Assembly: GCF_000011325.1 (NCBI RefSeq)
Contig: NC_003450.3
Location: 1,350,001-1,382,000, forward strand
From: Corynebacterium glutamicum ATCC 13032
GTDB lineage: Bacteria > Actinomycetota > Actinomycetes > Mycobacteriales > Mycobacteriaceae
Length of the DNA: 32,000 bases
Direction: 5' to 3'
A program made the position numbers and the translations under genes. The notes under the pieces were generated by a model, which ran no database searches, was not told the origin of the DNA, and saw nothing but the letters and a program-made list of their open reading frames with translations. Shown in pieces: positions 18,300-19,877 of the stretch; within the stretch, counting starts at the first letter, position 1; the number at the start of each line of letters is the position of its first letter.

Positions 18300-18305
18300 C
18301 CTTTG

Positions 18306-18321
18306 AATGAACATGTTCATT
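18306..18321. promoter_or_regulatory. Perfect 16-bp palindrome AATGAACATGTTCATT, candidate TetR operator
   Basis: Self-complementary. Lies 7 nt upstream of the TetR pseudogene ATG and 79 nt upstream of the GTPase gene ATG, inside the 100-bp divergent intergenic region. Confidence 0.5.
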
Positions 18322-18399
18322 TTAGTATCAGGTTCGAGACAGAGATAGCCCATCACTTTCGGGAGGATTTCAATTATATGGTGGCCAATTACAGCTAGC

Positions 18400-19554
18400 A
18401 TGAAGCACATGAATAACTCCGTAGATCAACAAATCGCCCTCTTTGGTCAATCTGGTAGTGGCAAAACCGCCCTACTTTGCTCTTTTTATGGCGCTGCACG
18501 AGATTCAACTCAAAGTGAAGGTCAGCTATTTGAACTCAGTGCAAAAGATGATCGGCATACCAAACTAATGAAGATGTATCTGGGAATGAAAGAAGATTCC
18601 CTAGCGCCACCCCAAAATAGATTCGAGTCTCATAAGACTGTCTTTTCCCTAAAACAGAAAAACATCCCAATTAAGGATGCTGCTAAATCTGATCAGGTGA
18701 ATCTCACTTGGCATGATTATCCAGGTGAATGGTTTGAGGGTGGAGCTGTAACGGACTCGGAAAAGCAGGATAAAGTTGAAACGTTTAGAAACCTGCTGGG
18801 CTCAGATGTAGCGCTATTTTTAGTTGACGGTCAAAAGCTGCATGATTACGCCAATGAAGAGGAGCGCTATCTTAGCTATTTATTTGATGGATTCATTGAA
18901 AACCTAAATCAGATCAAAGATGCAATCCTGGAGGGTGGGAAACAGCTCCAACAGTTCCCACGAATTTGGGTAATTGCTTTATCCAAAGCTGATCTATGGC
19001 CAGATCTCCAAGTAAAAGATTTTGAGAATCTACTTAATAAGAAAGCTGGCAATGAAATTATTGCGCTGCGTTCAAAGCTTTTGGAGTTTATCGATAACGA
19101 CGAAGCTTTCTCCTTCGGTAAAGATTTCCTTTTGCTCTCTTCGGCGAAGTTCACTCCAGGCCATATTGATATAAGCCAGCGCAAGGGTGTTGATGTCCTC
19201 CTCCCGTTGGCTTGTGTATTGCCCATGCAACGCCATTTGTGGTGGCAGGAGCTGAAAGTTTTGCCAATTAACCTGGCTGATATACTTTTGGGAAATGAAA
19301 TTGCCCAAATGGGTTTCAAGATCGTTTCCAAAGTTTTGAAAAACAAAGTATCTGGAACAAATAACAAGGCGATGGCGGCATTGGTTTTCGCTGAACTTGT
19401 GAGGGATATGGTTGATCAGCCAACTGAATTGCTTCAGAAGGCTCGTGAGGAAGCCGTCGGAAGGCGTGAATTCCTTAAAGCGATTACTGCAGAATTCACC
19501 AGGAAGCTGAATCAAGCCGAAGCTGATCAGGTTTTAGTTCGGGACTTTGCATGA
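18400..19554 (+). CDS. Uncharacterised TRAFAC-type P-loop GTPase with a roughly 130-aa C-terminal helical/hydrophobic extension
   Basis: 384 aa. G1 GQSGSGKT (res 16-23), G3 DYPGE (106-110), G4 SKAD (195-198), G5 SAK (248-250). Hydrophobic stretches follow (VDVLLPLACVLPM, AMAALVFAELV). AT-rich relative to flanks in hand counts (35-47% G+C). Confidence 0.75.
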   Translation: MKHMNNSVDQQIALFGQSGSGKTALLCSFYGAARDSTQSEGQLFELSAKDDRHTKLMKMYLGMKEDSLAPPQNRFESHKTVFSLKQKNIPIKDAAKSDQVNLTWHDYPGEWFEGGAVTDSEKQDKVETFRNLLGSDVALFLVDGQKLHDYANEEERYLSYLFDGFIENLNQIKDAILEGGKQLQQFPRIWVIALSKADLWPDLQVKDFENLLNKKAGNEIIALRSKLLEFIDNDEAFSFGKDFLLLSSAKFTPGHIDISQRKGVDVLLPLACVLPMQRHLWWQELKVLPINLADILLGNEIAQMGFKIVSKVLKNKVSGTNNKAMAALVFAELVRDMVDQPTELLQKAREEAVGRREFLKAITAEFTRKLNQAEADQVLVRDFA

Positions 19555-19877
19555 CACTCATGTGGGCAACCCGTGGAAAAGACTGGGGTTTCCGATTTCT
19601 TGATGATGGTGGGGAGCTCGATCCACTCCTGATCTATAAGCAGGCATTTGCAGACCGCGAATTGGCCGGTGAATTTGTGCTAATTCGCCCGGAATTCACG
19701 GCCACGCGCATGTTTGATCCTCTAGGACGCACCGACCATGCTGGCCGCATAATTCCACATGACTTTGTCCTTCGGGGGCAGTTCGCGGAAGGCGTCACCA
19801 CATTGGAGGATGTTCAGGAAATTATTTGGCCATTGGTCGAAAAACGATATGAGGCTATCTGGGATCGCTCTGTCTAA
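19551..19877 (+). CDS. 108-aa protein of unknown function, translationally coupled to the GTPase
   Basis: ATGA overlap with the GTPase stop (19551-19554). [25 protein letters not shown]... No motif recognised. Its TAA (19875-19877) overlaps the TAG of convergent thiC by 2 nt. Confidence 0.6.

Follow-up and report, generated by a model that had tools for sequence, protein, structure and literature searches.

What do a GTPase gene of unusual composition and the small gene that overlaps its end do together in Corynebacterium glutamicum? The stretch of DNA analysed here, called the window, comprises 32,000 nt of C. glutamicum ATCC 13032 (NC_003450.3, positions 1,350,001-1,382,000, forward strand), and exact look-ups identified the two genes as cg1474 (GTPase) and cg1475 (partner) of C. 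glutamicum ATCC 13032/MB001. A first-pass annotation of the sequence had taken them for a two-gene operon and for a candidate undescribed defence or stress module. Our answer is that cg1474/cg1475 may be a self-contained, horizontally mobile two-gene GTPase switch in phage-host conflict, i.e. in defence, a reading on which our confidence is evenly balanced. Of the explanations weighed here, a defence role of the cassette is the most likely, on circumstantial support. The two genes and the parts of the GTPase are located as follows:

18400-19554, plus strand: cg1474, 384-aa GTPase open reading frame (ORF list)
19551-19877, plus strand: cg1475, 108-aa partner open reading frame (ORF list)
19551-19554, plus strand: ATGA stop/start overlap of cg1474 and cg1475 (sequence read)
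18445-18468, plus strand: G1/P-loop GQSGSGKT, residues 16-23 (motif position)
18715-18729, plus strand: G3/Walker B DYPGE, residues 106-110 (motif position)
18982-18993, plus strand: G4 SKAD, residues 195-198, the guanine-specificity motif (motif position)
19141-19149, plus strand: G5 SAK, residues 248-250 (motif position)
19189-19551, plus strand: C-terminal helical bundle of cg1474, residues 264-375 (AlphaFold secondary structure)

We show that cg1474-type and cg1475-type genes are co-inherited and co-evolve. In a species scan with one genome per species (185,579 genomes), 161 of the first 600 pattern matches were confirmed as relatives, and the locus statistics given here rest on the best 80 of these 161, all from Actinomycetota. 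A partner ORF of ~110 aa, detected on the same strand with a hidden Markov model (HMM), follows the GTPase gene in 78 of the 80 species loci and ends ~330-440 nt past the GTPase stop. The two genes overlap by 4 nt (NTGA) in 76 of 79 junctions (78 species loci and the window) and by 1 nt in the other three. At the junction in the window, gcATGAcac, the TGA stop of cg1474 overlaps the ATG of cg1475, an arrangement that implies probable translational coupling. Pairwise identities of the GTPases and of their partners correlate (r = 0.66), and none of 999 Mantel permutations reached the observed value in this mirror-tree comparison. Outside Actinomycetota we found five metagenomic loci (39-51% G+C) in which, in every case, a GTPase of the same family comes before a variant partner. 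The GTPase HMM matches the four complete non-actinobacterial genes with E ~1e-90 and the fifth, which runs off the contig end (L183), with E 2e-48; the 4-nt overlap is kept in four of the five loci. A C-terminal membrane anchor characterizes this variant partner (hydropathy 2.3-2.8 in four of the five). The operon proposed at first pass, together with the co-occurrence of homologues suggested as a check on it, thus extends far beyond Corynebacterium (78/80 and 5/5 loci).

The two-gene architecture is self-contained and minimal. Each of the 80 species loci holds one GTPase, and ORF clustering within 6 kb of the pair in 81 loci revealed no third conserved gene, true neighbour families being present in at most seven loci. 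Large additional ORF clusters were considered as a third gene and rejected as antisense or alternative-frame shadows inside the two genes. Two loci deviate from the pairing: Frigoribacterium sp. Leaf186 (L039, 9983-11008) has a split, truncated GTPase gene without a detected partner, and a metagenome-assembled genome of Actinomycetota (L076) has an intact GTPase, likewise without a detected partner. These unpaired loci could reflect decay or solo use.

A compact cassette of two overlapping genes without further conserved components is also in line with a selfish toxin-antitoxin-like addiction module that has no dedicated defence function. Either the GTPase or the Arg/His-rich partner would then inhibit growth, the coupled other would neutralize it, and the module would stabilize the mobile DNA carrying it. 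We regard this explanation as quite unlikely, though it overlaps largely with abortive-infection defence and does not exclude defence. Its architecture would be atypical, with a 384-aa NTPase encoded first and a DNA-binding autoregulator domain in neither protein, and the broken GTPase of L039 and the undetected partner of L076 may also speak against it.

The sequence of cg1474 is that of a predicted GTP-specific TRAFAC GTPase from a DO-GTPase2/YcjX-like clade, with a C-terminal helical bundle. Pfam family PF19993 (DO-GTPase2) matches above the gathering threshold (45.4 bits, cut-off 27, residues 12-212), and the UniProt name of cg1474 is already based on DO-GTPase2. DUF463/YcjX (PF04317) reaches 13.7 bits with a threshold of 25 (E 0.03, residues 83-174 only), and all other Pfam families remained below threshold. 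Searches of NCBIfam and PADLOC gave nothing significant for cg1474 or cg1475; in PADLOC-DB 2.0 the best matches of cg1474, PbeC (E 0.013) and mad3 (E 0.025), cover the P-loop region only, and cg1475 has none. A profile search of PDB sequences with cg1474 likewise returned nothing significant and did not find YcjX. The Pfam and NCBIfam results bear out the first-pass annotation, in which no housekeeping GTPase family had been recognized for cg1474. Its homologues number more than 1,594, mostly of ~383 aa and from Actinomycetota, with 40-45% identity over the full length, and nearly all of those listed carry PF19993.

Both ORFs and the four GTPase motifs read at first pass are confirmed in the sequence. 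In an alignment of 26 family members, G16, S20, G21, K22 and T23 of G1 and D106, Y107, P108 and G109 of G3 are invariant; in the G5 region S247 is invariant, with conservation of 90% or more for S248 and A249. Glutamate directly follows DYPG in 72 of 79 GTPase family members, and G4 reads [ST]K[AS]D in 75 of 79, so that the motif set is a property of the family and not a chance match. A conserved Walker B glutamate also characterizes the DO-GTPases, a TRAFAC family around which predicted 'GTPase-centric' conflict systems are built (Kaur et al. 2020, PMC7159879). Compared with a 74%-identical C. glutamicum allele, cg1474 has a ratio of nonsynonymous to synonymous substitution rates (dN/dS) of 0.085, indicative of purifying selection. 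The partner shows a dN of 0.18 with saturated dS; both genes are under purifying selection.

The systems with which this family was defined, the DO-GTPase/GAP1 systems (Kaur, Burroughs, Iyer & Aravind, eLife 2020, PMC7159879; Pfam PF19975 and PF19993), offer a close comparison. The cassette GTPase shares with them PF19993 membership, the TRAFAC fold and the Glu after the Walker B DxxG. Further likenesses are a downstream co-evolving partner gene, mobile neighbourhoods, probable action near the membrane and a predicted conflict role. In the published systems GAP1 (GAP1-N1/N2, -M, -C) is encoded downstream of or fused to the GTPase, two paralogous GTPases occur in 38% and N-terminal zinc ribbons in 60%, the latter two features being frequent and not universal (PMC7159879). 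The cassette, in contrast, lacks GAP1 with its N, M and C domains, a second paralogous GTPase and N-terminal zinc ribbons; since G1 of cg1474 starts at residue 16, there is no room for such a ribbon. It also lacks GASH, FNIII and the variable effector array (tubulin, HSP70, kinase, SLATT and others), and has instead one unrelated partner of ~110 aa and a C-terminal helical bundle that is specific to the family. GAP1 families were absent from the top families of the 289 neighbouring genes described below.

The absence of the canonical DO-GTPase partners, together with decayed genes nearby (the DoxX_2 and TetR remnants and the Abi_2 fragment located below), might be explained if the pair were what is left of a prophage or of a larger DO-GTPase/GAP1 system, decaying and now functionless. 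This is highly improbable. Neither ORF is disrupted, 78 of 80 species have the same two-gene layout, the dN/dS of 0.085 and the conserved catalytic motifs point to a working protein, and a pattern scan of 2.9 million viral contigs did not, within its limits, reveal the GTPase. Conservation all but rules out a remnant.

The AlphaFold model of cg1474 (pLDDT 79, pTM 0.81) shows a Ras-like G domain (approximately residues 1-260) followed by a five-helix bundle with helices at 264-296, 302-315, 322-337, 342-354 and 358-375; model confidence is low for residues 291-321. The bundle is conserved along the whole GTPase family in the 26-sequence alignment, and it is a candidate output or oligomerization module. 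The first-pass annotation had noted two hydrophobic stretches in this part of the protein. They turned out to be weak: the maximal 19-residue Kyte-Doolittle value in the cg1474 C-terminus is 1.05 (family median 1.48; 20 of 81 members reach 1.6), which is not transmembrane-like, and a transmembrane C-terminus is not supported.

The top Foldseek match of the cg1474 model is YcjX (6nz5_A, E 5e-6, ~400 aligned columns), with a query TM-score of only 0.36 and a root-mean-square deviation (rmsd) of 9 Å. Further matches include MglA, also in MglA-MglB complexes, Rho-family GTPases, SRbeta-SRX, septins and GIMAPs. With the low TM-score as a reservation, the earlier hunch of a YcjX-type GTPase holds for clade, fold and superfamily, and it does not hold for DUF463 membership (13.7 vs 25 bits). 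Like YcjX (structures 6nz4-6nz6), its best structural match, cg1474 combines a DYPGE-type Walker B with a Ras-like core and helical elaborations, and YcjX-YcjF also form a two-gene operon whose partner can be membrane-bound. The differences lie in the DUF463 score, the low TM-score and a partner that is not YcjF-like; moreover, the cg1474/cg1475-type pair is patchy and compositionally foreign, unlike the proteobacterial stress gene YcjX, which is conserved. In a PSP paper, the group that defined the DO-GTPases describes a 'DO-GTPase family' protein, cites the DO-GTPase and YcjX structure papers for it, and predicts that it acts in membrane-related stresses.

These observations allow a different explanation: cg1474/cg1475 could be a non-immune envelope or membrane stress GTPase pair analogous to YcjX-YcjF, MglA-MglB or the Cvn conservons, with a partner that resembles a GTPase-activating protein (GAP), a guanine nucleotide exchange factor (GEF) or a guanine nucleotide dissociation inhibitor (GDI), and without any anti-phage role. 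We consider this possible but not probable. Apart from YcjX as best structural match and the PSP prediction, the membrane-anchored partners outside Actinomycetota are in its favour, as are the conservons (CvnB-CvnD), Roadblock-GTPase regulatory modules already used by Actinomycetota. On the other hand, cg1474 is no DUF463 member by sequence and no YcjF-like gene accompanies it. The distribution and neighbourhood data, which also bear on this explanation, are given below.

The partner cg1475 is a new alpha/beta domain whose family has no Pfam entry. No Pfam family matched at E<=1, no NCBIfam or PADLOC model matched, and no PDB sequence was found at E<=10. Conservation is nevertheless strong: 26 columns of the alignment do not vary across genera. 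Its AlphaFold model (pLDDT 93.4) has a beta-beta-alpha-beta-beta-beta-alpha topology with strands at residues 2-7, 15-19, 42-45, 50-55 and 69-75 and helices at 25-32 and 85-104. The same order of elements defines longin domains, in which a five-stranded antiparallel sheet is sandwiched by helices, and the model fits it. Foldseek matches are weak, with E-values of 0.06-0.5, query TM-scores of 0.38-0.44 and none at E<=0.001. The top-50 list is nevertheless coherent, as it consists mostly of longin/Roadblock platforms that regulate small GTPases: FNIP2, Nprl2/Nprl3, LAMTOR/Ragulator subunits, the longin domains of Sec22b and VAMP7, SRX, AP-3 sigma, Asgard Roadblock, BLOC-3 and Lst4. The Robl_LC7, Longin and related Pfam models did not match cg1475. 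Given a coherent list but no significant match, we call cg1475 longin-like in topology and not a member of the longin/Roadblock family.

With this reservation the pair resembles MglA-MglB, the conservons, Rag-Ragulator/GATOR1/FLCN-FNIP and SRbeta-SRX, in that a small alpha/beta protein of longin-type topology is encoded alongside the GTPase. MglA-MglB and SRbeta-SRX complexes are matched by the cg1474 model, and regulator domains dominate the matches of cg1475. Longin GAPs such as Nprl2 and FLCN contain conserved arginines, as does the cg1475-type partner. Unlike in these longin/Roadblock pairs, the structural similarity of cg1475 is weak (TM-scores up to 0.44, E-values from 0.06 upwards) and supported by no Robl_LC7 or Longin match, and the sequence of cg1474 is neither MglA- nor Ras-like.

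An exhaustive profile search yielded 285 representatives of the partner domain family at 50% identity, with three real architectures: the solo form of ~110 aa, the domain followed by a C-terminal transmembrane helix, and a phage type in which it is the C-terminal domain. An apparently narrow distribution (16 Corynebacterium-type matches in a word-indexed search) was discarded, as the locus HMM scans and the exhaustive search reach wider. We also rejected the GTPase-partner fusions P0149, P0228 and P0240 as Rosetta-stone evidence; their linkers are Arg/Gly/Pro-rich junk of the frameshifted high-GC type. Two surfaces of cg1475 stand out in the joint alignment:

19563-19601, plus strand: N-terminal beta-hairpin, residues 5-17 (joint alignment)
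19707-19766, plus strand: universal loop R53..D56-P57..R60-x-D62..G65-R66-x-I68-x-H70 (joint alignment)

Trp5 and Trp12 of the hairpin are present in 100% of the GTPase-paired forms (n=93; 79 actinobacterial and 14 non-actinobacterial). In 13 phage forms both are lost, the commonest residues at these positions being His (62%) and Val (31%). Because the two tryptophans are fixed where a GTPase is encoded alongside and lost in the phage forms, the hairpin is a candidate GTPase-docking surface. The key residues of the universal loop, by comparison, are at least 92% conserved in cellular and phage forms alike, and R60, D62, R66 and H70, for which the value is at least 93% in each of the three groups, are also invariant in two further alignments (A1 and A7). 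This pattern suggests that the loop is the core functional site common to both. An invariant and catalytic-looking R/D/H loop would also suit the toxin-antitoxin-like module considered above.

Phages encode the partner domain. A search of predicted viral structures aligned gp8 of Arthrobacter phage Nightmare with the cg1475 model at a TM-score of 0.90 (rmsd 1.4 Å, 37% identity). By tblastn against 50,697 phage records we found the domain in Nightmare and Tokki (Arthrobacter) and in ReqiPepy6 (Rhodococcus), and scans of viral contigs added seven more; bacterial-type patterns run on viral contigs gave no viral relatives. The GTPase was found in no verified phage among the same 50,697 records and, within the limits of the pattern scans, in none of 2.9 million viral contigs. 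A single record, MT835574.1 (L093, 'Bacteriophage sp.'), contains the whole pair; it is an UNVERIFIED human fecal scaffold and was rejected as a phage carrying both genes. The part searched, 7.7 kb upstream of its pair, does not match verified phage genomes, and the record may represent cellular DNA or a prophage region. Outside the GTPase-paired forms, the relatives of the partner found thus appear to be actinophage proteins only, in phages without the GTPase.

These phage proteins belong to phrog_38171 (Nightmare gp8, Tokki gp8, ReqiPepy6 gp016). Profile comparison aligns cg1475 with positions 112-218 of the 227 in phrog_38171, i.e. its C-terminal half (E 4.6e-17), and the likeness extends to 31-39% identity and an invariant D-P..R-x-D..G-R-x-I-x-H loop. 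The phage proteins start with a 25-aa DUF7211 motif (D-FL-HYGVKGMKWG-RK), followed by one hydrophobic helix and the partner domain. cg1475 has neither the DUF7211 N-terminus nor the transmembrane helix, so the domain is common to both and the architecture is not. Unlike cg1475, the phage proteins are devoid of Trp5/Trp12 and are encoded without a GTPase, between the terminase and portal genes and within arrays of DUF7211-starting genes; one to eight DUF7211 motifs occur per viral locus.

The arrays themselves are worth recording. They occupy 5231-8191 of L091 (Nightmare genes 8-12) and 742-9996 of L092 (ReqiPepy6 gp013 and gp015-gp021) and are found in the viral loci L103-L182. The motif HYGVKGMKWG is usually followed by a transmembrane helix and then by differing C-terminal domains. 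At least 275 DUF7211 relatives are present in IMG/VR, and one array member resembles a virion structural protein; DUF7211 may be a targeting or processing tag for polymorphic phage accessory proteins. In ReqiPepy6 gp013 (L092, 742-2334) and in the proteins P0220 and P0260, 2H-phosphoesterase (2_5_RNA_ligase2) modules are joined via DUF7211 motifs, and in the latter two a transmembrane helix and a partner-like domain follow in the same polypeptide. The 2H phosphodiesterases include the anti-CBASS enzyme Acb1, and this analogy hints that DUF7211 arrays could be counter-defence cassettes.

The cassette bears the signature of horizontally mobile DNA. The flanks are richer in G+C than the pair itself in 66 of 71 species loci, the median difference for the pair being -5 points. 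In agreement with the low G+C noted at first pass, cg1474 has 43.1% (41% at third codon positions) as compared with 53.5% for the whole window and 55-57% for the comparison genes serA, gltX, thiC and glgP; cg1475 is only mildly low (51.7%). A 74%-identical allele occupies an unrelated site in another C. glutamicum strain, and C. hylobatis carries a 43%-identical pair 8 kb downstream of the same gltX-tRNA-Gln-tRNA-Glu cluster. Exact look-ups retrieved the same cg1474/cg1475 allele in the same context from many sequenced C. glutamicum strains. The exact look-up of the ThiC protein returned the same C. glutamicum lineage only, always with the pair, and says nothing on divergent strains. The fixed position in many strains speaks against the defence or stress module of the earlier annotation; the second site in the species and the GC-poor pairs elsewhere speak for it. 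A patchy distribution (161 relatives among the first 600 pattern matches, 185,579 species genomes), the systematic GC deficit and the different sites within one species argue against a stress pair; a mobile, low-GC and patchily distributed cassette agrees with an addiction module.

In Bogoriella caseilytica (L003, 7459-7824) only 177 bp separate the end of a tmRNA gene (ssrA, tag ADSKRTEFALAA) from the GTPase gene downstream of it. Its smpB lies 2.4 kb further upstream of ssrA, which is a classic island-integration site. As a rule for the family, however, integration at tRNA or tmRNA genes was rejected, as a plausible tRNA lies no farther than 3.5 kb away in only ~3-7 of 80 loci, vs a rough chance estimate of ~6%. 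The emphasis that the first-pass annotation had placed on a tRNA-proximal islet thus proved anecdotal. Some ARAGORN calls are atypically long (82-94 nt, odd anticodon positions; L017 10720-10811, L013 11579-11660, L049 7817-7907 and L072 9416-9509). They are probably false positives in high-GC DNA, and the L017 call sits inside the GTPase coding sequence.

Individual loci adjoin McrBC, GmrSD and helicase genes. Among 289 neighbours within two genes on either side of the pair we counted four HsdR, three HsdS, four N6_Mtase, four GmrSD and ~5 UvrD-like proteins, in addition to PD-(D/E)XK and NERD nucleases, two C5 methylases, relaxases and transposases. The restriction-modification (R-M; type I subunits), GmrSD, UvrD/nuclease and methylase families, along with relaxases and transposases, were the most frequent in two of the three census batches. 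These counts lack a matched background set, and we therefore take the association of the cassette with defence genes as suggestive and not as a statistic. Read in this way, the over-representation of R-M and type IV restriction genes as neighbours is a further argument against a stress pair, as is the acquisition of the partner domain by phages. In Streptomyces anulatus (L004/L005, 9997-15239) an opposite-strand cluster of an HSP70-like gene and three unannotated genes lies directly downstream of the pair, with lanthipeptide genes after it; the published DO-GTPase systems include a variant with an HSP70 theme.

The reading of cg1474/cg1475 as a switch in phage-host conflict gains its support from the low G+C content, the different sites in one species, the restriction-system neighbours and the phage homologues of the partner, and also from the definition of the PF19993 family within predicted conflict systems. 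Several points weigh against it. No PADLOC defence model matches either protein, and the case for defence is circumstantial. The main weakness of the model is that neither protein contains a recognizable effector such as a nuclease, pore or NADase, and by hydropathy the GTPase C-terminus is not clearly membrane-active. The longin assignment of cg1475 is weak (best E 0.06, TM-score at most 0.44, no Pfam match). Many C. glutamicum strains have the locus at one and the same position, closeness to a tRNA gene is no general trait of the family, and the third census batch as well as many loci consist of ordinary metabolic and transport genes (major facilitator superfamily transporters, amino-acid permeases, dehydrogenases). 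Stability at one site and loci among housekeeping genes would equally suit a stress pair. Finally, as the phage homologues are devoid of the Trp pair, simple mimicry that titrates the GTPase is not the most natural interpretation. The earlier suggestion of a defence or conflict module stands in part, on circumstantial evidence that is nonetheless real.

If the pair does act in defence, a mechanism can be proposed. cg1474 and cg1475 would form a stoichiometric complex in which the longin-like cg1475 docks on the GTPase via the Trp5/Trp12 hairpin and controls or reads out its nucleotide state, in parallel to the action of longin and Roadblock proteins on MglA, Rag and SRbeta. The invariant DP..R.D..GR.I.H loop of cg1475 would bind a ligand or target that is also bound by the phage homologues. 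Infection would change this interaction and cause the GTPase to switch state. The helical domain could then provide the output by GTP-dependent dimerization or oligomerization, probably at the membrane; the non-actinobacterial partners are tail-anchored. The phage proteins, which keep the loop and have lost the Trp pair, might be competitors for the same target, i.e. counter-defence, or the evolutionary source of the domain.

A more far-reaching version appears rather unlikely to us. According to it, the cassette is a minimal new class of GTPase-switch immunity with the longin-like subunit as the contest point between host and virus, and actinophages deliver DUF7211-tagged, membrane-inserting and possibly virion-packaged proteins, one of which carries a paralogue of the ligand-binding domain to blind or trigger the switch. 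If true, it would constitute a prokaryotic precedent for longin-regulated GTPases in immunity, and the DUF7211 arrays with their 2H-phosphoesterase modules would be a new class of phage counter-defence cassette.

Our literature search found nothing on cg1474/cg1475 in C. glutamicum, PF19993/DO-GTPase2, DUF7211 or phrog_38171, and the searchable papers contain no description of the two-gene architecture, the partner domain family or its phage homologues. The DO-GTPase conflict systems of Kaur et al. 2020 (PMC7159879) are computational predictions, the literature found on such systems is computational throughout, and no experimental work on any member was found. The module is therefore undescribed in part: Pfam and UniProt already have a name for the GTPase family, and new are the minimal two-gene layout, the partner domain family and the phage homologues. 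With two genes and no accessory array, the cassette is the simplest DO-GTPase-type version found so far. Its host C. glutamicum ATCC 13032/MB001 is a genetically tractable industrial organism, and matched phage-host material exists in Nightmare and Tokki (Arthrobacter) and ReqiPepy6 (Rhodococcus), which carry the partner homologue. The findings pose the questions of an anti-phage role of DO-GTPases, of their control by a longin-like subunit and of the purpose of the widespread DUF7211 arrays; on the practical side, they touch on the phage vulnerability of C. glutamicum fermentations.

The surroundings of the pair in the window contain the following features:

19874-19877, both strands: convergent stop overlap of cg1475 and thiC (sequence read)
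17573-17689, plus strand: third tRNA-Glu(CTC) copy and strong terminator hairpin (tRNA call and terminator search)
17885-18070, minus strand: decayed DoxX_2 remnant (HMM match, E 4.8e-6)
~18095-18275, minus strand: TetR-type helix-turn-helix remnant '..ARVLKAAVQLFQE..ITIRGIAELAGVSTETV' (by eye in translation only)

The TAA of cg1475 (19875-19877, plus strand) overlaps the thiC stop (19874-19876, minus strand), and no terminator-like site was found between the two stops. The sequence read and the terminator search thus bear out both stop-codon overlaps described earlier and the absence of a terminator. The tRNA-Glu gene (17573-17646) lies 753 bp upstream of cg1474, close to the 750 bp given before, and is followed by a terminator hairpin with an 18-bp stem (17651-17689), the two marking the upstream edge of the low-GC stretch. 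Between this tRNA gene and the pair lie the DoxX_2 and TetR-type remnants. The DoxX part of the previously described TetR/DoxX locus is backed by a profile match, the TetR part by eye only. An Abi_2 remnant had been proposed beyond thiC; a fragment is present there (21976-22326, minus strand, 41% G+C) and scores 23.9 bits, below the Pfam threshold of 25.6. This other flank of thiC (21752-23346) is also low in G+C (47.9%) and contains an unclassified 177-aa ORF at 22601-23134 without a Pfam match. Given the low G+C on both of its flanks, thiC is bordered on either side by a patch of accessory DNA that is foreign or decaying. No att-like repeat bounding the islet was found in the window.

Upstream of the pair, a tRNA-Gln/tRNA-Glu unit is duplicated in tandem at 15591-16026 with a period of 248-249 bp and 99-100% identity. 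The third tRNA-Glu(CTC) copy (17551-17648), which precedes the terminator with the 18-bp stem, is slightly diverged and lies 1.6 kb past the tandem units. A similar Gln-Glu-Glu tRNA cluster follows gltX in C. hylobatis (L012, 1181-2147). Further upstream, a TetR-family gene (14337-14960, minus strand) adjoins SRPBCC/DUF2975 genes. Its product is called here with 207 aa, and in near-identical C. glutamicum strains (L087, L089, L095-L102) with 149, 151, 166 or 180 aa, a spread that suggests strain-specific frameshifts or start differences.

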